A DNA stretch of 64,000 nucleotides, from NCBI GenBank assembly GCA_965222605.1, contig OZ244960.1, positions 5,472,001 through 5,536,000 on the forward strand, written 5' to 3'. The position numbers were made by a program, and so were the translations under genes. Positions within the stretch are counted from its first letter, which is position 1. Every line of letters starts with the position of its first letter. Of the stretch, positions 1,288 through 64,000 are shown in pieces. Under the pieces are notes generated by a model, which saw only the letters and a program-made list of their open reading frames with translations, did no database searches and was not told the DNA's origin. Source of the stretch: Candidatus Latescibacterota bacterium. GTDB lineage: Bacteria > Latescibacterota > UBA2968.

Positions 1288-1971
1288 ATGACACATACAC
1301 TTGATTTGTACGGCGGCACAACCCAATTGAAGGGAAAAAGCACCGGCTGGTTCCATCTCGAGGAACTGGACGGGCGCAGATGGTTCATCACACCCGAGGG
1401 CAATGCCTTTTTCCCCGTGTCGCTGTCCCATATCTACACCGGGAACAGTCAGCCGACCGTGCAAAAGCTTTACGACTGCGACAAGGATGCGTGGATTGAA
1501 AAGTGGTTCGACCAGATGCGCGCGCTCGGGTTTAACTGCGCACTCGCAGGCGCAACGAGCCAGTGTCGGGACCCCAGGGGCTATGTCGATGTCGAGAAGG
1601 TGGTGGCGCTGTTTCGCCGCGAATCTTTCCCTTACGCTGCCGGACTCTTCCTGATCCCTCACCCCAACGAGTTGCCGGAAGGTCAGGAACGACCAGATAT
1701 TTTCGCCCCTGCTTACCAGGAGTGGGTAGAAGAGTTGGTAGCCGATGTTTGCTCGCGGTACGCCGATGATCCGTTGATGAAAATGTCCGGCATGATGGAA
1801 GGCCTGTACGATTGGGACGGCAACCCAAAGCCCGGGCTCGTGGATGCCGTGAGGGAGGCCAACAAGGAAATCTATGAACGCGCAACAGATCCCTATGGTT
1901 CTTCTGAAATCGTCGAGTTGGATGAAAATCTGTGCCGCGTCAGAGATGAGGTCCACAAACATATTCGTTAG
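1288..1971 (+). pseudogene. Agarase/GH50-like glycoside hydrolase, probably internally deleted
   Basis: GGAGG precedes ATG 1288. TGWFHLEELDGRRWFITPEGNAFF, MRALGFN and PDIF...YADDP match the N-terminal half of agarase-like TIM barrels. The frame then jumps to a C-terminal-like GLYDWDGNPKP without the expected GYFxDNE catalytic strand. Confidence 0.55.
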
Positions 1972-1981
1972 GTGGATTGAA

Positions 1982-2738
1982 ATGATTTCTGTACAACAAT
2001 GGGATTTTTGTACAACAATGGGATTTTTTTCAAGAACACGGTTATCTGATCGTTGAAAATGTGCTCTCTGTGCAACGATTGGCAGCGTTGCGAGAGGCCC
2101 TGGAAAAGAGATATGATCTGGAGGGCGAAAAGGCAGGATCAGAAGGAGCGAACCCTCCGGGCGTTCGCAGATTGTGCAATCTCATTGGTAAAGGCCGCGT
2201 CTTAGAAGAGCTGGCAATCGAGCCGATTGCATTAGAAATGGCCAGGCTGGCGATTGGAGAGGATATGCGCTGGCAGGCCATGAATTTTCACGATCCCATG
2301 CCCGGTGATCCGCGTCCTCATCAGGCAATCCATGCCGATCGATCGTTCTTTAAGAATTGTACTGCATACCTCAATGTGGTGTGGGCACTTGATGATATGA
2401 CAGAAGAAAACGGTGCGACTCGCCTTGTGCCAGGATCGCATAAAAAACCCTGGCCCCGAGATGTTCTGGACGATCTCAAAGAGGCAGTTGCTGGAGAAAT
2501 CTACGTGACCTGTACGGCTGGAACTGGCATTTTTTGCCATGGTGATGTCTGGCATGGCGCACGTGCAAACCGTTCAAAATCGCCCAGGCGTGTGATCCAT
2601 ATGGGATACAGTTGTCCAAACACTGCGCCTCAATATGAAATTGCAGGCTCTTTGACGCAGGATATTCGCGAGCGGTTGGGCGAGCATTGTGCGCTCATTC
2701 CAGATCCCCTGGCGTCATTTGGTTTGGAGAAACCCTAA
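1982..2738 (+). pseudogene. PhyH-family dioxygenase frameshifted by a 19-bp tandem duplication
   Basis: Has HAD, NGATRLVPGSH and WHG motifs. Removing one repeat copy gives MISVQQWDFFQEHGYLIVENVLS, a typical PhyH N-terminus. A shortened product from GTG 2061 is possible. Confidence 0.85.
1990..2027 (+). repeat. Perfect 19-bp tandem duplication TGTACAACAATGGGATTTT x2
   Basis: Copies at 1990-2008 and 2009-2027. Confidence 0.95.
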
Positions 2739-2858
2739 GCATTGGGTTTTGCGCCACGGATGCATGTCTCAGGTGTTTAGGAGATCCAAGGGGATTTTGA
2801 GGGTTTTTTTTGTAGCGGGCAAGCTGTTTAGGGACACGACACTGGAGGAGCACAGGTT

Positions 2859-3665
2859 ATGGAACAAGCATTGACGGAGCGTGAAATCGAAGCCATCGTC
2901 CGGGAGGTCACAGACGAAGAAGTGGCCTTCTACCAGGAATACGGATGGGTCATGATAAAGCAACTCGTAGCCCCGGAGTTCGTCACGGAGCTCCTAACTG
3001 TCGGCCAGGATTGGCTGGAACGCTATGGCGCAGACGAGGACCGCAGACGGGCCGTCGGTCTGGTACTGCAGGAAGAGGCTGAGCCATTCCGCTCGTTCAT
3101 GTTCAGTGAGCGCATGTCAAAAAACGCGATGCGACTCGTGAATAGGAAGCGGCTCAAGGGCGTAGATATCCCACTTCGCTATCGCGCTGACGTCATCAGA
3201 GAAAAGCCCCCAGGGGCAGCCAGAACCCATTATCATCAGGACTCGTCACAGCACGGCTCTGATCGCGTGGGTGAGCTCCAGTTCTGGCTTGCTCTGGTGG
3301 AAGTGACACCGGAGATGAGCGCCATGCGATTCGTCAGTCGCTCGCATCGCGAAGGACCGCTTGGCTCGGTAGGCGGCGATGGCCAGGGCGACCTGCTCGA
3401 GCAATTTCCAAATCTGACGTCTGTGCTGGAGCTTTCTCCGCCTTTGCATTACCAGACAGGTGATTGCACAGTGCATCACGGGTACACGATCCATGGCGCT
3501 CCAGTCAACAGCACCGACAAGTCGCGCTGGTCATACCTCTTCTCATACTCTCCATCCGACACCCGATACTGGAATGGCACAGCAGGCAACTGGGGCAACG
3601 AGCGAAAGCATCTGAGTGACCGGGATAATCCAACGGTCCATTTTCCCGATTCAGACGCGGTATGA
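2859..3665 (+). CDS. PhyH-family Fe(II)/2OG dioxygenase
   Basis: YQEYGWV, HQD, MRFVSRSH, GDCTVHHGYTIHGA. Close paralog of 55215-56018. Confidence 0.9.
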   Translation: MEQALTEREIEAIVREVTDEEVAFYQEYGWVMIKQLVAPEFVTELLTVGQDWLERYGADEDRRRAVGLVLQEEAEPFRSFMFSERMSKNAMRLVNRKRLKGVDIPLRYRADVIREKPPGAARTHYHQDSSQHGSDRVGELQFWLALVEVTPEMSAMRFVSRSHREGPLGSVGGDGQGDLLEQFPNLTSVLELSPPLHYQTGDCTVHHGYTIHGAPVNSTDKSRWSYLFSYSPSDTRYWNGTAGNWGNERKHLSDRDNPTVHFPDSDAV

Positions 3666-3742
3666 CCTCATGTTTCTAAATGCAGGCGATGAGGTGGTTG
3701 ATCAGGATACCCTAAGAACCACATGATTGAAAGGAGTGCCAC

Positions 3743-4927
3743 ATGCCCCCAACTCAGAAATTTGAAGAACGCGTCGTTCGTGTGGAGAAACCTTCCGCTC
3801 ACTTCACGCTGTTGAGGAACGAAAAGGGTAATTTTTTAGGCACATCGGAAGGCAAAACAGCCGTCTTCGGCCACGTTGACGACAAAGCGATCTGGAAAGA
3901 AGAAGGCGACACCTATCGCCATGTGGTGTCAGACCTGACACTCGATGTGTCTGCCGCGAATGACGAAGGCGTGCATCTCGCCCTGAATGGGAAAGCACTG
4001 GGCGAAGATGGCTGCCAATCGTCCATACCGTGGCGTTTTCAGCCGGGTCACGGTCCTGCCCATCTCCCATCTGAATACCTTCAACAAATCCGCGAGAACG
4101 GATGGGTCTGCCTTCCGAGCATCTTGTCTCCCCACGCGATCGAAGAACTGCAAAGGGTGAGTTGCACCGGCAAGTGGGACCATGAAGAATTAGACAAAAG
4201 CCTGCCGACCCTCACGCAGTCTGTAGAAGTGGCGAGAGCCGCAACCGAGCCCGTATCCCTCTGGGTGATGCGGGAGTATATGCAGTGTCGGGAAATTCGG
4301 CTGGCTCACAGGCCCGGTTTCGCCGTCGTGGTCCCGGATGACGGTGAACGCAAAGTGGGGGGGTGGCATTCGGATTATCCGTATCTCTGGGGGATCGCCA
4401 GGAATTCCTCTGATGGCAATCGGATCGTACCGCACAATGCGTTAAATCTTGTGCTTGGCGTTCAGCGAAATTTATGTGTGACCGAATTTAAGCGTGAAAA
4501 CGGCGCAACCTGTTTCAAACTCGGATCGCATACGCTTGGGGAAGGACCTCCTCGGGAATGGGGGAGTGGGAATACGTACAGGGAGGAGGGATCTCGCAGA
4601 GCAAAGGGCCTCCCCTATACTGGCTCCGAAGCAGACGTCGTCGAGGCGCCGGCGGGCAGCTACGTCATCTATGATGCCCGAACCTGGCATCGGGCAGGCG
4701 TGAACCGTACGAACAAAAAGCGGGCAGCGATGCTTCAGTCCGTCGTTCCCATGTACATCATGCCTTTTATGGAGACCGTCCGTCCTTACAAAGAATTCCT
4801 TGCGAGTCCTCTGGCGATTCAACTGACGGAGCGGGAGCATATCGAGCTGGAAAACCTCCTGGTAAGCCGAATCGATGGGCCTCAAGGGCGTTTTGCGATT
4901 ACCATGGATGAGGAACTTTCCAGATGA
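3743..4927 (+). CDS. PhyH-family dioxygenase with an N-terminal extra domain of about 105 aa
   Basis: ENGWVCLP, GWHSDYP, ENGAT...GSH, YDARTWHRAGVN. AAGGAG RBS. Confidence 0.85.
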   Translation: MPPTQKFEERVVRVEKPSAHFTLLRNEKGNFLGTSEGKTAVFGHVDDKAIWKEEGDTYRHVVSDLTLDVSAANDEGVHLALNGKALGEDGCQSSIPWRFQPGHGPAHLPSEYLQQIRENGWVCLPSILSPHAIEELQRVSCTGKWDHEELDKSLPTLTQSVEVARAATEPVSLWVMREYMQCREIRLAHRPGFAVVVPDDGERKVGGWHSDYPYLWGIARNSSDGNRIVPHNALNLVLGVQRNLCVTEFKRENGATCFKLGSHTLGEGPPREWGSGNTYREEGSRRAKGLPYTGSEADVVEAPAGSYVIYDARTWHRAGVNRTNKKRAAMLQSVVPMYIMPFMETVRPYKEFLASPLAIQLTEREHIELENLLVSRIDGPQGRFAITMDEELSR

Positions 4928-5706
4928 ACGAATACAAGACGCACTTTGATACCCCGGAAGATGCTTACTTCGGCTTTTTTGAAGCCGACGCATCCCAAAA
5001 TGGAGATGCCTGGGCTGCCGTGATGAGCTATCCCCATGTCCGCGTTGACGCATCGGGACAGACCGTCTATTACGATACGGCACGGGACTACGCCGATGCC
5101 GCCGACTGGACGTCAAGGGTAGCGACGGGTTGGGTCCTGACGAGGGGGCGAGAACCTGTCCGGCTGCACGAGTCTCCCAACAAGGTTCACCTCGTAGGCG
5201 GGTGGACGCGATATAACGCAGACGATGATCCCATCTTGTGGAACCGCGTCACTTATATTGTCACCAAACCTGCTGATTCGTGGGGGATCCAGGCGCGGTT
5301 TGCGCTTGGTACTTATTACGATGGGAGTGACGACGAAACAGCTATCGCCCAGGCTACCGAGGCGGCAATTAGTCAGGTGCGACGCTATTGCGATGCACTG
5401 GACAAAAACGATGGCGATGCTTGCGCCAACCTCTGTCGTTTTCCGCTGATTGAGGTCGGCGTTGGCGCAGTAACACGGATCGAAGACGGCACCAAACTGG
5501 TGCAACAGGTCAACGAAAGAACCACATCGGTCAGCAATCTAAAAGTCGAGGCAGCACAGTCTGGTCCTGATGGCGTCCTTGTAGCGGTGACTGCTGACGA
5601 TGCCTCTGGCAACAGCGAGCAATCCATCGTGGTGGTCGGCAAAGAGGCTGACGCATGGCAGATTGCTGGCATTTCGAGAATGATTGAGGCAGAAAATACG
5701 AAGTAG
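4924..5706 (+). CDS. Hypothetical protein, possibly tandem NTF2/SnoaL-like domains
   Basis: ATGA overlap with the upstream gene. Two similar halves (YFGFFEA..NGDAWAAVMSYPHV / YCDALDKNDGDACANLCRFPLI), each ending in a W-x-I strand. Confidence 0.6.
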   Translation: MNEYKTHFDTPEDAYFGFFEADASQNGDAWAAVMSYPHVRVDASGQTVYYDTARDYADAADWTSRVATGWVLTRGREPVRLHESPNKVHLVGGWTRYNADDDPILWNRVTYIVTKPADSWGIQARFALGTYYDGSDDETAIAQATEAAISQVRRYCDALDKNDGDACANLCRFPLIEVGVGAVTRIEDGTKLVQQVNERTTSVSNLKVEAAQSGPDGVLVAVTADDASGNSEQSIVVVGKEADAWQIAGISRMIEAENTK

Positions 5707-5717
5707 GGAGGTATATC

Positions 5718-5792
5718 TTGAAGATTACATCGGTAAAGGCTGTCCCCGCATCATCTTCGCCGCAAGGCCGCGTTCCACCGTATCCGCACTGA
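5718..5792 (+). pseudogene. Gene stub: enolase/mandelate-racemase-like N-terminus fused to an unrelated tail
   Basis: GGAGGT RBS then TTG, giving MKITSVKAVPASSSPQGRVPPYPH*. Confidence 0.55.
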
Positions 5793-5801
5793 AAGGACTT
5801 T

Positions 5802-7049
5802 ATGAATCGTTCTGTTCTGGACTGGCCAACAGGCGTTACCGTCTACCACCCTGACCGATGTTACAACGGGTACACGCTCGTTCACGGGCGAGGGCCCTGG
5901 GATCCTGTGCGTGGTATTTCGGCCGAACAGGTTGATCGATGGCACTTGATAGACATGAAGGGTCAGGTGGTTCACGAGTTCTACGGAAACCCGGCGACGC
6001 AGCGCGGCTCTCAGCTATTTGAACGCGTCGCAAACGGCCACTATATCAGCAATGGGGCCTCCATCACAGAACAGGACTGGGATGGAAATATTGTCTGGTC
6101 TCTGTCCTCAGACTTCCGCAAGGATGCGCGACCAACGAGTTTCCATCACGACATCCAGAAGACTTCTGAACACACCTATCTCGCTATGGTCGCGGATCGC
6201 GTCGAAGCCCCCCAGGTATCGCGCGTCACACTCCAAGACGATCACATCATGGAAATAACTTCGGAGGGCGAGATCGTCTGGGAATGGTGGGGGCATCACC
6301 ACCTGGAAGAATTCGGATTCAGCGATCGTGCGAAGCAGATCATATTTGAAACTGGCGGGGGGCAACAGCCCAGACAGGAAGGAGACTGGCTCCATCTGAA
6401 TACGCTTCACACACTTCCCGACAATCCCTTATATGATCAGGGCGACACGAGATTCAAGCCGGGAAATATTCTCAGCTGTTCCAGAAATGGAAATCAGATA
6501 TTCATCATCGAGAAATCGACTGGAAACATTGTCTGGAAGTGGGGCTATTTGGACCAGATGGAAACTATGTGGTTGAACGGGACCGAAAGGCAGAATCAAT
6601 ATCTGGTAGGTCCACACGATCCCAAAATGCTGCACAACGGAAATATCCTGATCTACGACAATGGAGGCGGTACGGGCTATCCTCCGATTAATCGATTCTA
6701 CACTCGGCTTGTAGAAATCAATCCCGTGAGTGGAGAAGTCGTGTGGGAATATGCTGCGGGGCCTCAGGCCAGCAAATTCCTGAGCATTGTTACCGGCGGC
6801 CTGCAGCGCCTCCCGAATGGGAACACGCTAAGTCTGGATACGGATAAGGGACGGATCTTCGAAGTGACCTGGGAAGGTGAAATCGTGTGGGAGTACATCA
6901 ACCCGAGAGGCGGATTCTACAGAACCCAGCGCATTGCCTACCCCGATTGCCCACTGGACCCCCCTGACCTGAAGCCCGCAGACCTCCCGGTTCCCGATCA
7001 CCTCGGCCTACCTGTATCAGACACCCTGGATTACTCCCCATCTCCCTAA
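5802..7049 (+). CDS. Aryl-sulfate sulfotransferase (ASST)-like beta-propeller
   Basis: LIDMKGQVVH, FHHD, DWLHLN, GPHDP, ILIYDNG, QRLPNGNTL and GRIFEVTWEGEIVWEY motifs. Confidence 0.85.
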   Translation: MNRSVLDWPTGVTVYHPDRCYNGYTLVHGRGPWDPVRGISAEQVDRWHLIDMKGQVVHEFYGNPATQRGSQLFERVANGHYISNGASITEQDWDGNIVWSLSSDFRKDARPTSFHHDIQKTSEHTYLAMVADRVEAPQVSRVTLQDDHIMEITSEGEIVWEWWGHHHLEEFGFSDRAKQIIFETGGGQQPRQEGDWLHLNTLHTLPDNPLYDQGDTRFKPGNILSCSRNGNQIFIIEKSTGNIVWKWGYLDQMETMWLNGTERQNQYLVGPHDPKMLHNGNILIYDNGGGTGYPPINRFYTRLVEINPVSGEVVWEYAAGPQASKFLSIVTGGLQRLPNGNTLSLDTDKGRIFEVTWEGEIVWEYINPRGGFYRTQRIAYPDCPLDPPDLKPADLPVPDHLGLPVSDTLDYSPSP

Positions 7050-7090
7050 GATTCGATGTCACCCTTCATCCCGACTACAGGATTATGCTC

Positions 7091-8023
7091 ATGTCCGATT
7101 ACACGTTTAAACTTGCCATGTTCACGACCGAACTGAGACTGCCCTATGACCGGGCATTTCCCAAAGCGAAAGAGATCGGCGCGGACCGCCTCTGGTACGC
7201 GCCTTCGGCGGGCGACCTTCCGTTCGAAGCCATGACCGACGCGGATATGGACCGCATCGGCGAGTGCGCCGAGCAGCATCAAACGGATATCTTCCTGCTC
7301 TGCGGAGGCCGTAAGTTCAAAAAAGTGCATCTCTGCGATCTGGATCTGGACCATATGGCCGAACACCCCGAATTTCAGGAAGCCCGGAGGGAACTGACCG
7401 CCGCCATGAAGATGGCCGCCCGGCTCAAAATTCCGGCAGTGGCCACGTTTACATTCGCCTGGCCGGGTGAATATACTGCCGGTAAGCCGACCTGGCCCAT
7501 GCGATGGATGACCCGCGGCGGCGTCATTTCCGGTCTGGACATGGACAAACTGGTCCGGGCGTTTACGCTGCTGGCCGAAGACGCTGACCGCTACGATGTG
7601 GATCTGCCGCTGTGCATGATGCCGTGGAATTACACGAATACCACGGAACACATGCGGCAGGTGATCGAGGCGGTCGGCTCACCTCGCCTGAAAACGGTCT
7701 GGGGGCCAGCGGATACCATGAACTGCGGTGAATCGGACACCGCCACCCGCGGATTTCAGAATGTCCGTCCGTATCTTCATACGCTCCACATAAAAGATCT
7801 GAAAGTCATAGACGGTCTGAAATGTGAGTTTGAATACTATCCCATCGGCGAAGGGGACGTGGATTTTCCGACGGTACTGCGGAACCTGCGTGATCATCAG
7901 ATCGACGCCGCGATATCCATCGCTACCCACTTCAGGCCGGAAAGCGGATCGGCGGAAGAAGCGATGCGTATCAACTTTGCCAATATGAAAGCGTTGATCG
8001 ATGGGTTAAACGATAGGGGGTAA
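7091..8023 (+). CDS. Sugar phosphate isomerase/epimerase (xylose isomerase-like TIM barrel)
   Basis: LHIKD and PIGEGDVDFPTVLRNL motifs. Confidence 0.75.
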   Translation: MSDYTFKLAMFTTELRLPYDRAFPKAKEIGADRLWYAPSAGDLPFEAMTDADMDRIGECAEQHQTDIFLLCGGRKFKKVHLCDLDLDHMAEHPEFQEARRELTAAMKMAARLKIPAVATFTFAWPGEYTAGKPTWPMRWMTRGGVISGLDMDKLVRAFTLLAEDADRYDVDLPLCMMPWNYTNTTEHMRQVIEAVGSPRLKTVWGPADTMNCGESDTATRGFQNVRPYLHTLHIKDLKVIDGLKCEFEYYPIGEGDVDFPTVLRNLRDHQIDAAISIATHFRPESGSAEEAMRINFANMKALIDGLNDRG

Positions 8024-8074: not shown

Positions 8075-9130
8075 TCATGCTTGTGGTACAGCGCTACTCA
8101 TGAACCCTTCGTCTCTCACCAGAACCTGGAGATCCAGGTTTGTCATAGGGAAATCCACCCGCGCGTTGCCCAACCGCTCCGATTCGTGAAGAGAAAGCAC
8201 CATTTCCAGCGCAGCCCGTCCGTCTTCTCCAGTGGATATTGTATCCTGATCGCGGTCGAGGCTTTCTACAATCTCCTCTGCCGACAACGGGATCACACAT
8301 CGGCCTGCGTTCGTTGTATTCAGCTTATGTTCCTCTGGTATTTCGGGGAATTTCTCCTCTTTATTTTTAACGAAGAGCTTGAACTGATGTGGCCGTGTAT
8401 TGACCACCGTTATCCGTCCCCTGGATCCAATCAATTCAAAGAGGTGCTGAGCCCTCGCTCCGGTAGATCCATTCACAATGCATTGTACGCCATTCTGAAA
8501 CTGAAAGTACCCGGCGCCACGGGGATCCAGCGCATCCGGATCCAATAGGTGACCAGTTGCCCACGCTACATCGCCTGCGAAGAAGCGCAGCATGTCAAAA
8601 AAGTGGGTTCCATTGTTGGCAAGCCCCGCGCTGTACTGAAGCGTCATAGCCTGAAGGGAGCCGATTACCTGCTGATCGATTATCTCCTTAATTTTTCGAA
8701 ATTGCCAATCCCATCGGCGCGTGTGGTTAATGCTCAGCTTTACATTGTTTCTCCGGCAAGCATCAATCATTTCGTCTGCCTCTCGCAAAGTAGTCGCCAT
8801 CGCCTTCTCACAGAATATGGCTTTCACACCTGACTGAGCCGCGGCAACAACGATATCTCGATGCGGAATGGGATAGGTGCAAACACTCACGATATCCAGC
8901 TTCTCAGTATCCAGCATTTCCTGCCAATCTGTGTACAGACCCGGAACATCCCATTTGCCTCCAAAACTCTGTCGGCGTTCATCGTCCCGATCTGCTGCTG
9001 CGACAATACGGGTTCGATCACAGTGATCGTAACAACCCGCATGAGTATTTGGCGTTCCGCGATGTATTTCCTGCTCCAGTAAACTCGCAATCCTGCCACA
9101 GCCGATAACACCAACGTTATAAACTTGCAT
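8075..9130 (-). CDS. Gfo/Idh/MocA-family oxidoreductase
   Basis: VGVIGCGRIA, CEKAMA, INHTRRW, GTHFFD. Confidence 0.9.
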   Translation of the reverse strand: MQVYNVGVIGCGRIASLLEQEIHRGTPNTHAGCYDHCDRTRIVAAADRDDERRQSFGGKWDVPGLYTDWQEMLDTEKLDIVSVCTYPIPHRDIVVAAAQSGVKAIFCEKAMATTLREADEMIDACRRNNVKLSINHTRRWDWQFRKIKEIIDQQVIGSLQAMTLQYSAGLANNGTHFFDMLRFFAGDVAWATGHLLDPDALDPRGAGYFQFQNGVQCIVNGSTGARAQHLFELIGSRGRITVVNTRPHQFKLFVKNKEEKFPEIPEEHKLNTTNAGRCVIPLSAEEIVESLDRDQDTISTGEDGRAALEMVLSLHESERLGNARVDFPMTNLDLQVLVRDEGFMSSAVPQA

Positions 9131-9195
9131 AGAAAAGCTCCGAAGAAAATCGTGGGAAGAACTCATTGTCGAACGTTCAAGGTCTCAGATCACAA

Positions 9196-10077
9196 TCAAA
9201 CCGAACGAGATCCGGCCATGCTGGGTGATACGCCATTGTAATCGTAGGGCCGGTTTCGGAAGAGGTAGTCTATTGGTTCGTCCACAAAAATTGTGTTTGG
9301 GTCCAGGTCGCTTTCTGCAAAGGCGGTTTCACAACCGGTATTGAACCGGAGAGGGGAAGGGCGACGCAGCCAGTGGCAGGCGTAGATCGTTGCGATCATG
9401 AACCGCGGTTGGTCGGAAAAATTTGGCATTCCCCGGTGCCAGAGCCGGGGGTCGCGGATCAGAATGCTTCCCTTTTTTGTATTCCCCCGAACCGGCGGTG
9501 CCACTTTCCGGCGTGCTTCCTGCAGGTGTGCTTCGACTTTGATATCATCTCCAATTACCTTTTGCGTTTCCAGATGGGAGCCGGGCCAGAGTTCGATACT
9601 TCCGTTGGCTTCGGTCACCTCGTCCAGGGCAATATTGACAATGACTTTGGCCGACGGGTGCGCAACATCCAGGTTCGGCCAGAGTTGTCCCGAGTCGACG
9701 TGTACCGGTTGGAGCTCGCTGCCCGGCAAGTTTGTGTTGCCGGTGTAGCGATTGTTGAAGATCCCCTCGCCGAGTAGGGCTTTCGAGACCTGGACCACCC
9801 AGGGGTTCGCTATAACGTCGCGAAAGACGTACGGGGGGCAGGGGGGCGGATCCTGCTGGACGTTTCCCCAAACGAAGTTATGGGGTGGCGCAGGGGCATT
9901 CATGATCTTCTCCAGGTCTTCGGCCATCCGCTCACGGAGAAGGTCGAGGTGTTCGTGCGCGACCACTGCATTGAGGACGATGTAGCCTTCCGTTCGAATG
10001 GTATCGAGGGCCTGTTTCAGGTGCGCGTCGGTGAGAGACTCGGCTGCGTGCTCTTCCGGTGTGACGGTGATTTCCAC
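9196..10077 (-). CDS. PhyH-family dioxygenase (KanJ-like)
   Basis: EGYIVL, GNTNLPGSELQPVHVD, NGSIELWPGSH, IRDPRLWHRGMPN. Confidence 0.9.
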   Translation of the reverse strand: MEITVTPEEHAAESLTDAHLKQALDTIRTEGYIVLNAVVAHEHLDLLRERMAEDLEKIMNAPAPPHNFVWGNVQQDPPPCPPYVFRDVIANPWVVQVSKALLGEGIFNNRYTGNTNLPGSELQPVHVDSGQLWPNLDVAHPSAKVIVNIALDEVTEANGSIELWPGSHLETQKVIGDDIKVEAHLQEARRKVAPPVRGNTKKGSILIRDPRLWHRGMPNFSDQPRFMIATIYACHWLRRPSPLRFNTGCETAFAESDLDPNTIFVDEPIDYLFRNRPYDYNGVSPSMAGSRSV

Positions 10078-10118
10078 GGCTACTCATCTCCCTGTCAGTG
10101 ATTACTCCCAACGCTAAA

Positions 10119-55104: not shown

Positions 55105-55214
55105 TGCTTTCTCCTTTGCAGATTTGGTGTGACTCGCTAAGACCTATTTTGGTGCCCCATTTTTCGTAAACAAACTCCGAAAAATGCAAGAACGCGCCTG
55201 ATGGGTAAAGCTAC

Positions 55215-56018: not shown

Positions 56019-56058
56019 AACCAGTGCTCCTCAAGTGTAATGTCCCAATTCAAAACCA

Positions 56059-57543
56059 TCATACCCTGTCAGCCCCGCCGAGAAGTTGCTCTTTGGTCAT
56101 CACCTTGACTGGTGGCAGGTTATCGACCATTCCCGCGTCCGTGCGTCGCAGTTCATCAATGGTCCCTTGCCGAAATTGGGCGAGCAACTCGTGGTAATCA
56201 GATTCCAAAGCGAGGTTTTCCAGTTCCTCAGGGTCATTCTCGAGATCGTACATCTCTTCGATCTCCCCGGGGACGAGCCAGCGGATATATTTGTACTTTC
56301 CCGTACACAGAGATACCCACCAGGGGATAGGAGGATTGCCTATTGGCTCACCACAGCCGACATCGGTGTCTTCTCCAAAATAATGACCCGTACACTCCAT
56401 CAGCAGCGGGCGATCCCATTCGGCGTTGGGGTCGGAGAGCAATGGTGTCAGGTCCTCCCCGTGCATCTTCCATGGTTGTTCCATGCCGATCAACGAGAGA
56501 AAGGTAGGCGGGATATCCTGGCCGCCGATTGGCATATCGCATACTGTGCCTGCAGGAATCCGTCCCGGCATCCGCATGATCATCGGCGCTTTGATATTGG
56601 CATCATAGGGAGCCACCTTGAGTCGAAAGCCGTGCTGTCCCCAGGCAAATCCCTGGTCCGACGTAAAGACGACCAGAGTATCATCCAACTGCCCCATCTC
56701 CTCCAGGGCGCCGATCACCCTACCAACCCCTTCATCCAGGGCGCACACGCCTCGGTTGTATTGTTGTTCCCAATCGGTGAGGGTCCGTCCATCCCGGATG
56801 CCTACCGGTTGGCCCTGATCTCCCTCACGCCAAACACCATAGTCCCGCATATGTGTCGCCTTGGTCGGGCGCGGCGGATAGATGTCTTCTGGCGTGGGGA
56901 CCTGGGGAACATCTGGATAGTCCTGGAGATGGCGGTCAGCCACTGCCCAGGGTCCGTGCACTGCGTCATAGCACAGCCAGAGGTGCCATGGCTTATCCGG
57001 TTCCTCTGCTCGTCCACGGAGAAATTCAAGTGCATACTCCGTGTAGTTATCGGTAGAATAGCCGCCAACCGGTTCCGGCGGCCCCCCGTTGATACTCATA
57101 TTCTGATTGACATAATAGGGCCCGTATTTCTCGGGTTGGCTGTGGTCCCAGATGGCAGAAAAATCCCAGTACCGACCGTGACCATGATCGGGACCTGTGT
57201 GCCATTTGCCGACGATGCCTGTGTACCAACCGTTTTCACGGAGATTCTCGAGCCAGTACGGACACCGGTCTGGATCACGGACATAGTTTGGGTAGCCCGA
57301 GGGCAGGTGCATGCTCATCACGCCATGCGGCAATTTTCCGGTCAGGTACGTGGCGCGTGAAGGAGCACACCAGGCACTGGTATAGCAGTTGGAAAAACGC
57401 ATCCCCTCATGGGCGAGGCGATCGATGTTTGGCGTACTGATCCACGAATGCGCCTCGGGATAGCAACTCACAGACCGAAAGCTCTGATCGTCGGTGAAGA
57501 TGTACAAAATGTTGCGCGGACGGTTCGATTGATCATCGTTCAT
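56059..57543 (-). CDS. Formylglycine sulfatase
   Basis: RNILYIFTDDQ, CAPSRATYLTG, GKWH, SDQG, EMYDLENDPEE. Confidence 0.92.
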   Translation of the reverse strand: MNDDQSNRPRNILYIFTDDQSFRSVSCYPEAHSWISTPNIDRLAHEGMRFSNCYTSAWCAPSRATYLTGKLPHGVMSMHLPSGYPNYVRDPDRCPYWLENLRENGWYTGIVGKWHTGPDHGHGRYWDFSAIWDHSQPEKYGPYYVNQNMSINGGPPEPVGGYSTDNYTEYALEFLRGRAEEPDKPWHLWLCYDAVHGPWAVADRHLQDYPDVPQVPTPEDIYPPRPTKATHMRDYGVWREGDQGQPVGIRDGRTLTDWEQQYNRGVCALDEGVGRVIGALEEMGQLDDTLVVFTSDQGFAWGQHGFRLKVAPYDANIKAPMIMRMPGRIPAGTVCDMPIGGQDIPPTFLSLIGMEQPWKMHGEDLTPLLSDPNAEWDRPLLMECTGHYFGEDTDVGCGEPIGNPPIPWWVSLCTGKYKYIRWLVPGEIEEMYDLENDPEELENLALESDYHELLAQFRQGTIDELRRTDAGMVDNLPPVKVMTKEQLLGGADRV

Positions 57544-57545
57544 TT

Positions 57546-58427
57546 CTATCCTCCGTAATCTATTCCATATCTTTTTTCAACAACCGGCCTGATCTCCGGC
57601 GCTCCGTTCTGTTCACACCACGGCGTAAGCGGGCTATCTCCACCACCGGGTTTGTATCCCTCTATCTTTGGATATCTTTCACCAACCAAATACTGACCCA
57701 ATTCATCCAGCTTATTCAAGAAGGCAGGCTCTTGACTTCTATAGTCCAGCGGCATAACCCAACGATATCCATAACCAAACATGATCGCCTTCCGGATGTT
57801 ACACGATGCGTTTATACCCGCCGCATGCGCTGTTCGATTTTCGAAGAATAGACAATCACCAGCCTTTAAAGAAGCTTCAACATAACCTTTTGGCCCAAGC
57901 TCTCCTTCTGGTATATCAATGGGTTTGCCGTCGCGATTGGTGCCAGGCGCAACCAGCGTCATTCCCGAGTTTGGTTGGGTCATATCGTTGAGATAAAACG
58001 CGCACTTCAACAAAACGCGGGGGACATGAACGCCAAACACTTTTGTAGCTGCGCCATAATCGCGATGCCAGCCCGGCCGCCGAATCTTGCCAGAGGGATC
58101 GGAAGGGGATTTGTAAACGAGGTGTGATACCATCAGCTGGATATGCGCGCCTAAAAGCTGTACGACAACCGACAGCGATTTGGAATGTGTCAGAAGTGGG
58201 ATAAAAGCATCATCTTTCACAATACAATTCTTAAAGCCACCCCCTGTGCGCATTTCGCGATCATCACTCGCAATCAACCGATCACCAGCTTCAACAATCC
58301 GATCAATCATTTCCCGATCGAGTACGTTGCGCACAATGAGATAGCCTTGCTCATCAAACTGCCTGATTTCTTGTTCTGAAAGTGCATGCCAGTCCAAATC
58401 AATCGACGATTCTGTCATCTGAGCCAT
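57546..58427 (-). CDS. PhyH-family dioxygenase
   Basis: AAGGAG RBS before ATG 58427, FDEQGYLIV, GWHRD, AGDCLFFENRTAHAAGIN. Confidence 0.9.
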   Translation of the reverse strand: MAQMTESSIDLDWHALSEQEIRQFDEQGYLIVRNVLDREMIDRIVEAGDRLIASDDREMRTGGGFKNCIVKDDAFIPLLTHSKSLSVVVQLLGAHIQLMVSHLVYKSPSDPSGKIRRPGWHRDYGAATKVFGVHVPRVLLKCAFYLNDMTQPNSGMTLVAPGTNRDGKPIDIPEGELGPKGYVEASLKAGDCLFFENRTAHAAGINASCNIRKAIMFGYGYRWVMPLDYRSQEPAFLNKLDELGQYLVGERYPKIEGYKPGGGDSPLTPWCEQNGAPEIRPVVEKRYGIDYGG

Positions 58428-58512
58428 TGTTTGCTCTCCTTCTGTTCCTGCGTTAATATTTGCTCCATTACATCTCCAGAAAATCAGTATTGATAAAAAC
58501 ACAGAGGGGATT

Positions 58513-59940
58513 CTAAACACTCGGCAAAGGCACAGTATCTCCTGTTTCATGTTGCCACACTCGAATCTTCGCCGCCATATCGCGAATGCGATCGCGATGT
58601 TCAGGAACATCAAACAGATTGTTTTCTTCATAAGGATCTGTATTAAGGTCGAACAACTCACACTGATCACCAGCACACAAATTCAACTTCCAGCGATCAC
58701 CCGTCACCACAGATCGCCAAGGCAATGTCGCCATCAAGTTAATGCTTGGATTCCCTAAATTGCGATCGCCAATCCCATTCCACTCTATAAATGCAACGTG
58801 ATCCTTCAAATCGCGCTCACCGGTGAGTGCACCAGCCAAACTCACCCCTTCACACTGATCTGAAACTTCAACGCCCGCCAGATCCAAAAGTGTCGGCACC
58901 AAATCCGCATGCCCAAACACACCATCGATTCGTTTCTGTTCCTTATTCAACCACGGCACACTGAGCAAAAACGGCACTCGCGCAGACTCTTCGTAAAACG
59001 TCCGCTTTTCCATCATCGCATGATCGCCCACCATTTCCCCATGATCACTCGTGTAAGCAATAATCGTATTCTCCAGTTGCCCTGTCTCTTCCAATGCCTG
59101 AATGATCCGCCCCACAGCATCATCCACAATCTTCATATTTCCGAAGTATTGCGATCTCACTTTCCGCCATCCCAATTCCGTACTTAAATCTTCACCTGCC
59201 TCCATCTTCGTTGCATAATGCTCTGCTCGCACCTGATTAAATCGCGAATGCCCTTCAGGCTGTTTCAAAAACGTCGGGCCAACCGGCAATTCCTCAGGAT
59301 CATACAAACCGTCATACGGCCCTGTATACGGAGGGTGCGGTTCAAACGTACTGCACACCAGCAACCAAGGCTGATCGACATTTTCTCGAATAAACCGATC
59401 CGCTTCCTGCGCGACAAACGCCCCGACCTGTTGTTCCGCTGGCAAACGTGCGCGATCTCCTGCAGAAAATTGTTTCAAGTCCGGTGCCAAATGCGAGGGT
59501 GGTTCAACGCCCTGCGCCACCAACCACTCATAGTGGGCACTCATCGGCGCATCTTGAATCGTATTCAAATGCCGCAAATTATCCTGAATACTGATCCACT
59601 CATCAAACCCATGTTGGCGAACGGTATCGTTGCCCAAATGCCATTTGCCCATATATGCCTTGCGATATGTATCTGGCATCATTTCCGCAATCGACTTTGT
59701 ATCTTCCCGTAGATGAATCCCATTCGCCACACATCCGTGCGAATGAGGGTACAGCCCAGACATCAACGTACCCCGCGATGGCGTACACACAGCCTGACTA
59801 ACATACGTATTCTCAAAAACAAAAGACCGCTCCGAAAGCGCATTCAAATGCGGCGATTGAATCCAATCATTGCCGTAACACGACATGGTATCTGTGCGTT
59901 GCTGATCTGTGAACACAAAAAGAATATTCGGTTGATTCAT
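58513..59940 (-). CDS. Formylglycine sulfatase
   Basis: QPNILFVFTDQQ, CTPSRGTLMSG, GKWHLG, PHPP, SDHGE. Confidence 0.93.
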   Translation of the reverse strand: MNQPNILFVFTDQQRTDTMSCYGNDWIQSPHLNALSERSFVFENTYVSQAVCTPSRGTLMSGLYPHSHGCVANGIHLREDTKSIAEMMPDTYRKAYMGKWHLGNDTVRQHGFDEWISIQDNLRHLNTIQDAPMSAHYEWLVAQGVEPPSHLAPDLKQFSAGDRARLPAEQQVGAFVAQEADRFIRENVDQPWLLVCSTFEPHPPYTGPYDGLYDPEELPVGPTFLKQPEGHSRFNQVRAEHYATKMEAGEDLSTELGWRKVRSQYFGNMKIVDDAVGRIIQALEETGQLENTIIAYTSDHGEMVGDHAMMEKRTFYEESARVPFLLSVPWLNKEQKRIDGVFGHADLVPTLLDLAGVEVSDQCEGVSLAGALTGERDLKDHVAFIEWNGIGDRNLGNPSINLMATLPWRSVVTGDRWKLNLCAGDQCELFDLNTDPYEENNLFDVPEHRDRIRDMAAKIRVWQHETGDTVPLPSV

Positions 59941-59983
59941 ATCTATCCCTCTCGTCGTTGTCGTTCACGGTATTTTCCTACTC

Positions 59984-61975
59984 TTACCCAGAGGACAATT
60001 CGATTCTTTTCATCACTCGCTCCAATACCCACACCCTGACGATGCCATCCCGCTGCCCACCAAGCCCGCCTCTGTAATTGTTCTTTTCGAGCTGCGCATT
60101 GTGTTCTGGCCCACACATCTCCTGTTTGTTTATGGCGTGCTCCAGGGCGGGAATAAGCGGCACCATAGGTTGCAATTCTTCGCGGCTGCGGTATGACAGA
60201 TAAGCGCCGGCCCGTAGCCGCGCCCAGAGGATATCGCTCGCCAGTGCCCGCTCAAAAGCAGGCAGGGCCAGGGCGCCTTCGCCTGCCCGCATCAGATAGT
60301 CTCCGGCGGCCAGGCTGACGCTGATTGAGGGATCGTCAAGAAGGGGGGAAAGTCGCTCGATCATCGTATGTTCCACACCAAGTGAGCAAAGGCCGGTAAC
60401 GGCCCAGAAACGCACGGCGCTGTCGGGATCACCAAGCCGTTTTGCGAGTTCTAACTTTGCTTCTTCGCCCATGCGCGCCAGGTCTGCTGTTTCCAGGATC
60501 CGCTCTAAATTATCACAGTTCACACCGACTGCATGGCTGATGCCGTTGTACTGCTCGGCTCGCGCGGCAATCTCCGGTTCATCGATCAACCCCAGATCAC
60601 GGGTCTCGATCATCCATCTGAACAGTTTCTGCCGCAGCTCATCCACGACAGCACTGAAAGCGGGATCATCTGCCAGGTTATGTATCTCTTCAGGGTCCTT
60701 TTCAATATCGTATAACTCTTCGGCGGGTTTGTGATCCTGCCAGATCTGGAACTGCCGGTAATGCTCTGGTAGCCCGTCCGGTTTGATCATCACTGGCGGG
60801 CCGAGCATCAAAAACACACCGTCGGGGTCGTGGACCTTTTGTTTGCCTGGCAGGCAAGAGGTCTCCCAGAAGGCGCGCTCCGGCGTTCCCTCCTCCGGGA
60901 CGGTCGCAAAGAACCCGCCGTCCGGATAGAACGAAGCGTATGGCTGGTGGGGCAAGAAGTTACGCATGTAACGGTATTTTTCGGTGCGGATCGTACGGAT
61001 CACTTCCGGATTGTTGTCCAGCCGATCCCTGGCACTGCAGACGAACTCCCTCGGTTCATCTCTATCGGGACCGCACAGGTTTCGACTCTGAATGTGTTCG
61101 GCGATAGGGACGCCTGCCAATTGCAGAGTCGTCGCACAGAGGTCCATGTGCAAGACGAGTTCATCAACCGCAGTGCCGGGGTCTGTCGGGGATAGGTGCC
61201 GGTATTTCTCCGGGAATCGCATGATCAGTGGGATATTCAGTCCGTCGTCGTAGGCGTGGATCTTGCCCCGGGGATAACCCGTGCCGTGGTCTCCCCAATA
61301 GACAACAATGGTGTCTTCATGGAGTCCCTGTGCTTCAAGCTCATCGAGGATCTCTCCGACCTGCTTGTCGATATTTGTAAGAGCATCGTAGAAGAGCGCC
61401 ATCCGTTCCCTGAACAGGGGGGTGTCGGGAACGAAGCTCGGAACTGGCACATCATTCGGATCGTGCAGTTCGTCGTCGCTCAAGAGCGGGGAACGCCCTT
61501 TTCGCGCCTCACCGGGCGTCAGCTTAAAAACACTGGCGTGGGAATTGCCCAGTTTGTAATACAAGAAAAACGGCTTGTCTTCAGGGCGCTTCTCCCAGAA
61601 ATCGCCAGAGCTGTAATACTGTTCACGCTCCTCTTTGGAGACGTAAAGATTGATGTCTCCGTCCGGCTCCGTGCAGGCGTAACCGGCATTCGTCAGCATT
61701 GTGTTTAACAACTTAACCCCTGCGGAGCGGATGACCGCGCTGCGGTGATGATGCGTGCCCAGCGTCGTCGGATGCATGCCGGTATAGATGCCCGTGCGCG
61801 ACGGTGAGCAGATTGGGCCGGCGGTGAATGCGTTGGTGTAGCGCACACCTTCTGCCGCCAGGCGGTCAATATTTGGGGTATGTGCGTATTGATCCCCGTA
61901 GCAACCGTAGTTCCAGGCACTGGAGTCGTGGTTACTGATCCACAGGATATTGGGTCTGTCTTGTTTTGCGTTCAT
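59984..61975 (-). CDS. Sulfatase with a C-terminal HEAT-repeat domain
   Basis: RPNILWISNHD, CSPSRTGIYTG, GDHG, EELYDIEKDP, then LGDPDSAVRFWAV and LLDDPSISVSLAA repeats. Confidence 0.9.
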   Translation of the reverse strand: MNAKQDRPNILWISNHDSSAWNYGCYGDQYAHTPNIDRLAAEGVRYTNAFTAGPICSPSRTGIYTGMHPTTLGTHHHRSAVIRSAGVKLLNTMLTNAGYACTEPDGDINLYVSKEEREQYYSSGDFWEKRPEDKPFFLYYKLGNSHASVFKLTPGEARKGRSPLLSDDELHDPNDVPVPSFVPDTPLFRERMALFYDALTNIDKQVGEILDELEAQGLHEDTIVVYWGDHGTGYPRGKIHAYDDGLNIPLIMRFPEKYRHLSPTDPGTAVDELVLHMDLCATTLQLAGVPIAEHIQSRNLCGPDRDEPREFVCSARDRLDNNPEVIRTIRTEKYRYMRNFLPHQPYASFYPDGGFFATVPEEGTPERAFWETSCLPGKQKVHDPDGVFLMLGPPVMIKPDGLPEHYRQFQIWQDHKPAEELYDIEKDPEEIHNLADDPAFSAVVDELRQKLFRWMIETRDLGLIDEPEIAARAEQYNGISHAVGVNCDNLERILETADLARMGEEAKLELAKRLGDPDSAVRFWAVTGLCSLGVEHTMIERLSPLLDDPSISVSLAAGDYLMRAGEGALALPAFERALASDILWARLRAGAYLSYRSREELQPMVPLIPALEHAINKQEMCGPEHNAQLEKNNYRGGLGGQRDGIVRVWVLERVMKRIELSSG

Positions 61976-61986
61976 TTTTACCTTGA

Positions 61987-64000
61987 TTACTTTTTTGTGG
62001 CGTTCCTTTCAGTATCTACTGTAGCGCCTGTTACAAACAATAAGGCATCTTTGGAAAGCTTCTTACCTCCCACGTACATCCCCCATCGAAAGGCACTACG
62101 ACCACTGGGTCTTTCCCAGTCGTGGCGTCCTGCAAATTCCCCATTGATGTAGCATTCAGATGTATGGCCGTTGTCGCGAATGCGGACATCAAAAGACTTG
62201 CCTTCCATGTTCTTTAATACAGTCTCAGGGGTCGCTCTGCGTGGCTGGTATATGACGTCACCATCAGCGGTCATAACCAACTGTATAGACCAGTCTTCGC
62301 CATTGTTTTTCACCTGAAAGATGGCACATCCTTGCGCTTTCACAATCGTGTAGGTGCCAATCCATTCATGCCAGGTACCACGGTTCCACCTCTTTTTGCT
62401 AAACGCCTCGATCCGAGCCGCATTGGCACGTGCATTGCGCACATTGTGCTCACCATCAAAAAGGCGAAACACCTGTGTGTTTTCGTCCTCCTGATACCAT
62501 CGCGACCATTTGTGAAAATCACGTCGAGGAATCAAACTGTTGCCCAGTGTGTGAATGTTGATTTCACTTTCTATGGAGCGAAAGGCATGAGGTCCCTTTT
62601 CTACCACCTCGTTATTGACGTCAATTATTGAACCTGTTATTCCCGCATATGAGTTCGTACCGATCGGAATCTGTTTCTCTTCGAGAATGGACGACCAGGA
62701 AGGATCACTGTCGTGCCTGGTGTAAAGGAACCGATCAGGATTGTCTTCTGCCTGTTTTGTAAAATCCAGGACCTTCTTTCGCGTCCCTTTGCTGATGGTG
62801 ACAACCCCGCTGTTCCACTCAGCATTGAGAAAGGGGCTTTCAAAGACTTTCTTTGGAGCGTAGTCAACCGGCTTGCCATTGATTGAGGGGACCGCTTTGG
62901 CGCTGGTATCAAAGGTCAACTGATCGCCATAGATGGTTTTGTAGTGCAGCACCGTCCCATCCATATGAACTTTACAGACCTTCACCTTTTTATTGAAAGC
63001 GTCGAAACTCGTGACATCGCTCTTGGCCATGACTTCAATGATCACTGGTGCGTATTCATCATTGGGGATCATGGTCGCGTTTTCGGGAACAAAGCGATCC
63101 GTTTCAAACTCGCCATCCATCCACTTGAAACCGCCTGTGGCCACGCGGACCGCCGCATAAGCGCCTTTGGCCTCCACATAGACCACGCCATTCTCTTCCA
63201 CTGGCGTGCTCAACCCGCTCTTCGACATCCAGATGATCATCTCGGCACCGTCCTTATGGTGCTTAAGCTTCTGGGTAATCAAGCTTCCCTTGCTCTGCAC
63301 AGACCACTGTGCGTTCATGGCCACCCGGTTGTCTTTGGGGCGAACGATGGGAACAATACGCGCATCGTGTTCGCCGGCAAAGATCACGCCTTGCCAGCGG
63401 TTTTGCGCACTGATCGCAGCCCAATCCTCCAGGGGCCTCGCTTCCGTCATCGGCGTTCCCATGATGAAGGCGGGATCACAGTAGCTGTAGCGCAGAATAC
63501 CACCCCCGTCGGTTCGCATCCTGGTCGGCACTTTTGTAGCAGCAATCTTCAAAGGGCGCCCCGTTTTTCCCAGACCCTGGGGACGTTGCCGCACCTCGTA
63601 TCGTCCTCGTCCTGCCACGTCGATTGCGATATCGGCCACCACGGCTGGTGGTCGGTAGTCGCTGAGAGCTGCGTTCATGTCATGACCATAAACAGCAGGT
63701 TGCTTGCCGATGCCAAAGTAGAACCAAGCCAGCGGCGCATTGCCATGCTCCCGGTTTTGCTTAAGCCCTTTCCAGAAATAGATGCGCGACCGTCCACCAC
63801 CTTGAACGCCGTCAATCTGTTCCTGCGCCCAATAGGCAAAATAAAGATCGAGCAACAGCCCGGCCGACCGTCTCACCTGCGGGTCACCAAAGTCGTAGAA
63901 ATTGTAGAACCTCTTGATCAGTGTGCTGTTATAGTCGTCGCACATCATCTCGATGCACAGGCTTTTGCGCGCACGTTCACGGCAGTAAACCACAAAATAC
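61987..64000 (-). CDS. Large multidomain protein (5' end outside the window) with a C-terminal PL7-like beta-jelly-roll domain
   Basis: The frame is open to the window edge. The C-terminal RIEAF, IFQVK and FRWGMY motifs resemble PL7 RxEL, QIH and YFKAGxY. Confidence 0.6.
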   Translation of the reverse strand, partial: YFVVYCRERARKSLCIEMMCDDYNSTLIKRFYNFYDFGDPQVRRSAGLLLDLYFAYWAQEQIDGVQGGGRSRIYFWKGLKQNREHGNAPLAWFYFGIGKQPAVYGHDMNAALSDYRPPAVVADIAIDVAGRGRYEVRQRPQGLGKTGRPLKIAATKVPTRMRTDGGGILRYSYCDPAFIMGTPMTEARPLEDWAAISAQNRWQGVIFAGEHDARIVPIVRPKDNRVAMNAQWSVQSKGSLITQKLKHHKDGAEMIIWMSKSGLSTPVEENGVVYVEAKGAYAAVRVATGGFKWMDGEFETDRFVPENATMIPNDEYAPVIIEVMAKSDVTSFDAFNKKVKVCKVHMDGTVLHYKTIYGDQLTFDTSAKAVPSINGKPVDYAPKKVFESPFLNAEWNSGVVTISKGTRKKVLDFTKQAEDNPDRFLYTRHDSDPSWSSILEEKQIPIGTNSYAGITGSIIDVNNEVVEKGPHAFRSIESEINIHTLGNSLIPRRDFHKWSRWYQEDENTQVFRLFDGEHNVRNARANAARIEAFSKKRWNRGTWHEWIGTYTIVKAQGCAIFQVKNNGEDWSIQLVMTADGDVIYQPRRATPETVLKNMEGKSFDVRIRDNGHTSECYINGEFAGRHDWERPSGRSAFRWGMYVGGKKLSKDALLFVTGATVDTERNATKK

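Follow-up and report, generated by a model that had tools for sequence, protein, structure and literature searches.

A co-oriented sulfatase and PhyH dioxygenase gene array in Candidatus Latescibacterota is permuted gene by gene without inversion, probably through general recombination

How are genes added to, dropped from and re-ordered within a long co-oriented array of catabolic genes, and does this take a dedicated, integron-like machinery? The question is raised by a 64-kb stretch (hereafter, the window; G000:C1:5472001-5536000) of the complete 6.34-Mb genome (51% GC) of a Candidatus Latescibacterota metagenome-assembled genome (MAG), which the original prediction had described as an integron-like but attC-free mosaic, built from several donors in one- or few-gene units, pruned by short-homology recombination and possibly an undescribed system. 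In order to answer it, all window genes were mapped on the homologous 100-120 kb from seven same-genus genomes (G015, G009, G002, G004, G017, G014, and G007), which share 84-99% nucleotide identity with the window. The reading we prefer, with a probability of roughly 0.65, is that the array is an emergent product of general recombination within a co-directional set of enzyme genes, i.e., an additive flexible genomic island. The window would form the core of a hotspot in a genus of sponge-associated Candidatus Latescibacterota, while a dedicated integron-like system is not supported, as no recombinase or recombination site that could have built the array was found, unit ends vary, and several of the translocations can be read as duplication followed by loss.

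The window holds approximately 50 open reading frames (ORFs), and a Pfam scan of 52 ORFs returned ten PhyH dioxygenases and nine sulfatases, one of the latter truncated. The co-oriented run of 42 kb that had been noticed before lies on the minus strand and comprises about 35 genes (8075-50012; ORF list and Pfam), where the sole exception among the called genes is a TnpB remnant. The run is preceded by a plus-strand block (2061-8023; PhyH_a, PhyH_b, PhyH_c, hyp2, an arylsulfotransferase (ASST), and a xylose-isomerase-like TIM protein by Pfam) and followed by a second minus-strand run (53635-63999; hyp6, PhyH_i, Sulf_f, PhyH_j, Sulf_g, Sulf-HEAT, and hyp7), and shuffling extends at least 18 kb further, past the right end of the window. 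The same locus is present in all seven same-genus genomes examined, with differing content and order; the plus-strand block was also found in all of them, with extra genes interspersed.

Genes at this locus have changed places and have hardly ever been turned around. Orientation is conserved in 253 of 260 gene matches, and the seven inverted matches all belong to a single gene, PhyH_i (55215-56018, minus strand), whose counterpart in the relatives is a plus-strand gene flanked by hyp1 and PhyH_a, i.e., it sits inside the plus-strand block and is there still co-directional with its neighbours. Per genome, 11-18 of the 30-41 adjacencies among shared genes are lost. For instance, the RND efflux block (OEP-HlyD-AcrB; 11320-17160, minus strand, delimited by Pfam matches, block ends, and a promoter-like site) occurs in at least four upstream contexts, being preceded by ADH_N2 in the window, by DUF4432 in G015, G009, G002, and G004, by EEP in G017, by AKR_a (an aldo/keto reductase, AKR) in G014, and by n13 in G007. 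The order of PhyH_e and Sulf_a is swapped in four genomes, and PhyH_f, AKR_a, DUF4432, Sulf_f, PhyH_h, and hyp6 wander across the relatives. Genome-specific genes are drawn from the families of the array itself (sulfatases, PhyH, enolase superfamily, GFO, TauD, AKR), and the seven loci lack six of the window genes altogether (hyp0, ADHzn, TnpB, GFO_b, the TnpB remnant, and TauD). These gene-order variants bear out the predicted turnover in units of one or a few genes, and the conserved orientation, together with junctions placed at ribosome-binding sites (RBSs), agrees with the claim that both features are kept when the array changes.

The junctions tell how the changes may have come about. 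Breakpoints in the alignments of the locus lie at gene borders with microhomologies, and most rearranged junctions consist of 20-40-nt spacers that contain nothing except an RBS. In G004, approximately 38 nt of the 3' end of AcrB persist between ADH_N2 and AAAkin, the place occupied by the RND block in G000 (the genome of the window), and the intact block of G004 stands elsewhere, upstream of hyp5. The Zn-ADH gene ADHzn (18361-19509, minus strand), kept in G000 and in the independent assembly L053, is reduced to a 5' stub in G014 (upstream region plus the first seven codons) and precisely deleted in G002. In front of the RND block, G015, G009, and G004 carry AKR stubs at a site where G014 has an intact AKR gene, and G009 carries the first 19 nt of AKR_a as a 5' stub after PhyH_f, where the G000 gene is intact, reciprocally to a stub of this gene in G000 (44717-44797, minus strand; 81 nt of the 3' end downstream of PhyH_g, 89% identical to 37062-37142 and recovered by blastx), at the site of which four relatives have an intact AKR_a following PhyH_g. 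Identity was tried as a guide to the parent copy of this G000 stub and abandoned, every candidate matching at 82-90% over 81-88 nt. In G007, there is a tandem duplicate of XylTIM_a-GFO_a, with a PhyH_d stub. Judged by such remnants, several apparent translocations would be duplications followed by the loss of one copy.

Other junctions look like insertion or crossover. GFO_b (32046-33240, minus strand) is absent from all seven related loci and lies exactly inside the RBS that separates hyp5 from EEP, the insertion being bounded by GAGGAA on either side. G014 and G004 share a Sulf_c/Sulf_b chimera with an overlap of about 90 nt, probably an unequal crossover. The ends of the PhyH_f unit vary by approximately 20-45 nt with the context, its flanks comprising about 5-26 nt upstream and from about 37 nt to none downstream, and such variable ends imply that no fixed recombination site is used.

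Within the window itself, six of the nine spacers that had been listed as gene fragments (5718, 25961, 44707, 45683, 48307 and, weakly, 51938) could be confirmed, as they are homologous to genes that are still intact in relatives or in other parts of the window. Besides the AKR_a stub described above, they comprise 20 N-terminal codons of the enolase-superfamily gene n1 (5718-5777, plus strand; blastx 95%, E = 3e-7), which is intact in all seven relatives, and 64 C-terminal codons of the sulfatase n39 (45686-45877, minus strand; blastx 97%). The ORF at 25961-26347 is, on the evidence of its matches, a pseudogene scar, with two remnants of n22 (443 aa in relatives) at 26001-26221 on the minus strand (blastx 92% to residues 113-161 and 419-443). 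The truncated sulfatase (48241-48942, minus strand) is an N-terminal half that covers Pfam profile positions 1-171 of 301 and is 92.6% identical to residues 5-208 of a 461-aa orthologue (N-terminal 204 aa), and an 86-aa ORF with a sulfatase-like N-terminus (51929-52189, plus strand) is a probable stub with weak matches (E = 1e-4 to 1e-5). The spacer at 53522 was not confirmed as a gene fragment by blastx. The two pieces at 32034 and 32074, which make up a tail associated with GFO_b (32035-32168, minus strand), yielded no homologue in the homology search, and their likeness to the C-terminal end of an unknown foreign gene plus a sulfatase-like N-terminal stub was seen by eye only.

Three scars came in addition to these nine. 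A sulfatase N-terminal stub of 15 codons (22539-22583, minus strand), recognized in the sequence, stands in frame with the SDR start codon and resembles the 5' ends of Sulf_d and SulfN, and 19 C-terminal codons of the enolase-superfamily gene n38 remain at 43233-43289 (minus strand; blastx 84%, E = 4e-7). The third, hyp1 (1273-1971, plus strand), is an internally deleted derivative of n10 (397 aa, intact in relatives), having lost 485 nt at the 11-nt direct repeat TCCGTTGATGA. Together with the microhomologies at the junctions, these stubs support the predicted pruning by short-homology deletions.

Identity between the genomes is also uneven along the locus. In terms of raw nucleotide identity, more than half of the locus genes (24 of 46) reach 94% or more in each relative that carries them, which exceeds the level of the control regions given below, e.g., the RND genes (95-97%), Sulf_d and Sulf_e (96-98%), Sulf_g (98-99%), and PL2_b (98.6-99%), next to neighbours that go down to 84-90% (PhyH_j, hyp6, Sulf_b, Sulf_c, and Sulf-HEAT). 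As this gene-by-gene mosaic is identical against all relatives, it is not explained by a chimeric G000 assembly. Four control regions of 20 kb each were compared in G015, G014, and G007. Three of them were colinear, with identities of 85-97% per block (mostly 88-94%), namely the recA neighbourhood, a random region, and a sulfatase/PhyH-rich region at 2.44 Mb. The fourth, at 3.40 Mb (G000:C1:3406000-3410000), is a second sulfatase/PhyH array 2 Mb away, in which [PhyH, X] has been swapped with [Sulf, RraA-like] on the same strand and a 3' stub of the RraA-like gene was left in G000; shuffling is therefore not unique to the window locus. Shuffling also affects the adjacent 20 kb on the right side of the window, so that it concentrates in sulfatase/PhyH arrays and is strongest at the window.

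Taken as a sequence of events, the preferred reading would start with the duplication of segments, either in tandem or by copying. Deletions and insertions at microhomologies of 5-16 nt, often in the Shine-Dalgarno/start region, would then remove one of the copies and leave ORF stubs behind, while neighbouring paralogues would occasionally recombine unequally. In addition, single genes or short blocks would be imported from co-resident congeners, possibly through transformation with one-sided homology, which would raise the between-species similarity of many locus genes above that of the core genome. Selection would retain only those products that keep intact ORFs behind a usable RBS. Since neither duplication nor deletion can turn a segment around, and as co-directional expression would be selected for, genes would be permuted without inversion and breakpoints would fall at ORF edges. 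The order of these events, like the import route, is proposed from the scars, microhomologies, and elevated identities.

Several points weigh against this reading. The window genes were called with a simple longest-ORF caller, which is crude. The concentration of homology-block ends at gene edges (75 of 111 distinct ends within 25 nt vs. 7% for random positions) speaks for the reading but is inflated, as high-scoring segment pairs break in the faster-diverging spacers. Comparing all pairs of genomes gave 72 records of clean indel junctions, in which orthologous events are counted separately; in favour of microhomology, 36 overlap by at least 5 nt and several of these overlaps are Shine-Dalgarno-like, but 33 (~46%) overlap by just 0-2 nt. 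The rearrangements were read pairwise and are unpolarised on the species tree, and the raised identities, being raw values and not synonymous divergence (dS), could partly be due to gene-specific constraint. Base composition is the one line of evidence that points to an origin from several donors. Finally, the upstream end of the RND block varies by no more than a few bases among at least three contexts, which is unexpected under random deletion, so that a defined end may exist here. We attribute this constancy to a promoter just inside the block, as a sigma-70-like site is predicted by the promoter scan at 17147-17119, about 13 nt from the block end. An ORF start or signal peptide was also considered for this end and dropped, since there are in-frame stops and the promoter-like site fits better.

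An alternative we consider unlikely is that the gene orders are old and stable, each having descended vertically within its species with no present turnover. The independent assembly L053, at 98-99.7% identity, has the same order as G000 from Sulf_a to PhyH_a, and orders are shared in groups (G014 with G004, G015 with G009), as such a history would leave them. However, between species with core identities of ~88-94%, many genes reach 95-99%, which implies recent exchange, and some events are peculiar to G000, i.e., the insertion of GFO_b and the placement of the RND block. Moreover, alternative joints occur in the same metagenomes (a TnpB-less form, SDR|PhyH_e and PhyH_e|Sulf_a in the swapped order, NHL-SDR before ADH_N2, and MR_MLE|PhyH_e), although these may come from co-resident relatives instead of one population.

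Shine-Dalgarno/start regions are the one motif common to all spacers, and a bolder proposal makes them the centre of a recombinase-free equivalent of the integron. Template switching or strand annealing at these spacer microhomologies would copy, drop, and re-order ORFs in register, the RBS would double as a recombination site for an evolvable enzyme library swapped among co-resident species, and such arrays may owe a higher rate to a dedicated factor that has escaped recognition. Taken as a whole, this proposal is improbable in our estimation.

That a dedicated cassette system with an unrecognised site excises single genes and re-inserts them in one orientation, its recombinase being encoded elsewhere, we hold to be quite improbable. 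The single-gene granularity, the strict orientation, and the ORF-edge breakpoints are what it would produce, the upstream end of the RND block is constant across contexts, and there are degenerate fragments of tyrosine recombinases at a distance of 3-4 kb from the left end of the window; these pieces are short, however, and one holds a stop codon. The genome encodes no IntI, as the best TIGR02249 score genome-wide was 88.4 bits (at 2.66 Mb, far from the locus) vs. a cut-off of 265. No pair of attC cores (RYYYAAC-N35-125-GTTRRRY) was found on either strand of the window, compared with 6.2 ± 4 in random sequences, in a test that used our own crude regular expression plus folding and not the covariance model of IntegronFinder. 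There was no general excess of spacer hairpins either (only 4 of 24 spacers gave a folding z-score under -2), and the repeat search found no shared spacer repeat family in the window. A hairpin seen downstream of the RND block of relatives is absent from the window and is thus not a general unit end. The original prediction had itself reported no attC, integrase, or shared spacer repeat, and all these searches agree with it, while its label of an integron-like system is not supported. Furthermore, unit ends differ between contexts, and the stubs of "moved" genes at their old sites fit copying and decay but not clean excision. What keeps a dedicated mechanism under consideration at all is mainly how dense the events are, along with the constancy of the RND block at one end.

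Orientation would also be preserved if the genes were mobilised by IS200/IS605-type (TnpB) elements or by 77-nt hairpin repeats, through strand-specific single-strand transposition, an explanation that is very unlikely. A TnpB-only element (19566-20850, minus strand; OrfB_IS605 and Cas12f1-like TNB domains, PF07282 E = 3e-23, PF01385 E = 1e-7; TnpB gene at 19628-20755), of which the genome has five copies, is an insertion polymorphism within the array, the TnpB-less joint 19565>20849 being present in runs X3, X5, and X15. An inverted TnpB remnant (47450-48216, plus strand; inverted repeats, 80-90% identical to 19622-20740) truncates the sulfatase at 48241-48942. In G007, the TnpB-related gene n41 splits the RND operon between HlyD and OEP. 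TnpB-only elements are active enough to be polymorphic. The 77-nt dispersed repeat (10098-10174), which is present 22 times in the genome and many times in relatives, folds into three small hairpins and supplies the last 56 nt of an ORF that resembles adenylyl-sulfate (APS) kinases; it is missing at this site in G014 and G004, and a repeat-less form is also found in reads. The stretch immediately downstream of TnpB is similar to part of this repeat, which may be a miniature derivative of an IS200/IS605 right end. Against mobilisation by such elements, they are present at few junctions, most rearranged spacers having an RBS alone, both insertions are simple polymorphisms with no linked rearrangement, and no Y1 transposase (TnpA) appeared in the Pfam scan of the window. 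The TnpB element, the TnpB remnant, and the 77-nt repeat are simple insertions unlinked to the rearrangements. The TnpB of the window was inserted directly after TTCAC at the end of the NHL gene, altering its last codons.

The continuity of the assembly was checked with contigs from public runs over 20 kb of the window, the GFO_b junctions lying outside of this part. Short-read contigs of X1 match 10144-12819, 12875-19595, and 21086-24839 with 0-2 differences, and the G000-specific OEP|ADH_N2 junction is spanned by contigs of X1, X5 (12848-17637), and X3 (16390-18215), which come from three separate studies, so these 20 kb are not an assembly chimera. That the array as a whole is a chimera of co-occurring strains is scarcely credible: all compared genomes are MAGs and relatives do co-occur in the samples (extra depth, alternative joints), yet L053 repeats the order and seven assemblies have consistent block structures.

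The closest described counterpart of a locus built in the preferred way would be the additive flexible genomic islands of Alteromonas, which are hotspots where cassettes are added by illegitimate recombination, with cassette number and order varying independently of the phylogeny and cassettes nearly identical across species (PMC4898812; Lopez-Perez and Rodriguez-Valera 2016). The window locus resembles them in being a fixed chromosomal hotspot in all genus members examined with a variable complement and order of cassettes, in having cassettes closer between species than the drifted cores, and in its metabolic content (degradation pathways and efflux pumps). It differs in having no tRNA, tmRNA, or integron anchor (no tRNA was found in the window, the 20 kb of its left flank or the 40 kb of its right flank), in consisting mostly of single-ORF units with strict co-orientation over 42 kb, and in its junctions at RBSs and ORF edges with many stubs and duplication-loss scars. 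With chromosomal (sedentary) integrons it shares a long co-oriented array of single-gene units, which may be mostly promoterless here too, short spacers, and variable content and order, whereas no IntI or attC was found here (attI was not searched for), unit ends are unfixed, and old copies decay in place instead of being excised.

Tandem duplication-random loss (TDRL) is a model of gene-order change from animal mitochondrial genomes. Its orientation-preserving permutations and pseudogene remnants in spacers are found at the window locus as well, where both a duplicated intermediate (G007) and remnants of lost copies (G004, G014, and G000/G009) were seen; the setting differs, as we deal with enzyme genes on a bacterial chromosome and with import from relatives and insertions superimposed. 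In the lpl cluster of Staphylococcus aureus, recombination reportedly takes place in a conserved core inside each ORF, so that the unit consists of two half-genes (PMC2568036; Tsuru and Kobayashi 2008). Co-oriented paralogues in a genomic island are recombined in both cases and the evolutionary unit is exposed by comparing multiple genomes, but only the Sulf_c/Sulf_b chimera is of the lpl type, since most breaks at our locus are at ORF edges between unrelated families. An expansion of PhyH in Poribacteria and an enrichment of sulfatases in PAUC34f and Poribacteria, all sponge-associated lineages, have been described (PMC3909097, PMC7081726). The genome studied here has very large and diverse PhyH and sulfatase families as well, while those accounts, in their available parts, treat gene abundance and not locus architecture or gene-order dynamics. 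In the literature found for such a locus type in Latescibacteria or sponge symbionts, there were repertoire-level papers only.

With eight chromosome-level genomes, the locus provides a well-resolved case of an uncultured symbiont that diversifies its catabolic enzymes gene by gene, in which ORFs are permuted without inversion, spacers keep the scars, and exchange among congeners outpaces core divergence. If microhomology centred on the Shine-Dalgarno sequence proved general, co-directional operon-like arrays would be intrinsically prone to shuffling without any mobile-element machinery, which bears on the evolution of operons and enzyme libraries and on the reading of "integron-like" arrays that integron finders miss.

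Apart from the sulfatases and PhyH genes, the Pfam scan found pairs of GFO/MocA, xylose-isomerase-like TIM, AKR, PL2-like lyase, and Zn-ADH genes, single TauD, ASST, MR_MLE (enolase superfamily), SDR, RidA, DUF4432, EEP, GH130-like, NHL, and APS-kinase-like genes, the RND trio (11336-17090), and TnpB. No family of regulators or importers was among the Pfam matches of the 52 ORFs, as had been stated from inspection, and the hallmarks of a Bacteroidota-type polysaccharide utilisation locus (TonB-dependent receptor, SusD, and regulator) are all absent from them; six array ORFs had no match in Pfam or NCBIfam, even at relaxed thresholds. The array is probably an enzyme library that degrades sulfated glycans and other sulfated compounds, as its predicted members are sulfatases, Fe(II)/2-oxoglutarate dioxygenases, oxidoreductases of sugars and sugar acids, isomerases, and dehydratases. 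Genome-wide, hidden Markov models built from the window copies recovered ~154 sulfatase and ~167 PhyH genes, which are scattered over the chromosome, with the density of sulfatases peaking at the window. Public runs that contain the window stretch include one labelled as a sponge metagenome (0.23 share of sampled words).

The shifts in base composition at gene borders that had been noted by eye, both GC-rich and AT-rich, match the computed profile. The GC content at third codon positions (GC3) ranges from 0.384 (PL2_b) to 0.835 (hyp4), its standard deviation places the window within the top 4% of the 64-kb windows of the genome, and the difference between adjacent genes within the top 1.5%. 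Only 13 of 3882 genes genome-wide exceed a GC3 of 0.78, and three of them (MR_MLE, hyp4, and DUF4432) lie in a GC-rich segment of the window (24771-31176, minus strand). At the other extreme, the AT-rich PL2-like gene unit (50254-51887, plus strand; GC3 0.384) is 98.6-99.0% identical in four relatives.

Both sulfation and desulfation chemistry may be encoded in the window. The former is considered because an arylsulfotransferase gene (5802-7049) accompanies the gene for a protein of 402 aa (10119-11327), whose two halves are P-loop kinase-like and which bears weak similarity to adenylyl-sulfate kinases; this gene directly follows the RND operon. Sulf_a apparently starts at 23942 with an ATG that opens a twin-arginine-like leader (MDRRAALKALG), while several other sulfatases start right at the N-terminus of the catalytic domain, with no space for a signal peptide; such different starts suggest a mixture of exported and cytoplasmic enzymes.

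Outside the array, positions 1-540 (minus strand) carry an IS982-family transposase fragment (NCBIfam NF033520, E = 1.9e-25, below the cut-off), with six copies in the genome at 97-100% identity. The left edge holds only IS982, IS66, and IS3 elements and an 84-aa tyrosine-recombinase fragment. In the flank G000:C1:5461000-5472000, we observed IS66 and IS3 transposases, a HEPN protein, an AAA-ATPase/PD-(D/E)XK protein, two short tyrosine-recombinase fragments, a PEGA-domain ORF, and a CAAX-protease-like ORF. When the window was scanned for consensus promoters and terminators, the results stayed at chance level and yielded no operon map, apart from the promoter-like site of the RND block, and Rfam at gathering threshold matched no family in the window. 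Contigs from the RNA run X15 cover 9001-17103 and 20849-21701, and as contigs they show neither a transcript nor its level. The extremes of GC skew are at 3.05 and 0.05 Mb, and gene-strand bias is too weak to indicate the direction of replication. The spacer between hyp4 and GH130 contains a structured stretch of 92 nt (27519-27610) that is single-copy in the genome, and contigs of three runs are without it (joint 27518>27611). Lastly, a conserved small ORF of about 80 codons (35357-35600, minus strand), with its own RBS and an ATGA overlap with the start of hyp5, accompanies hyp5 in all seven relatives.

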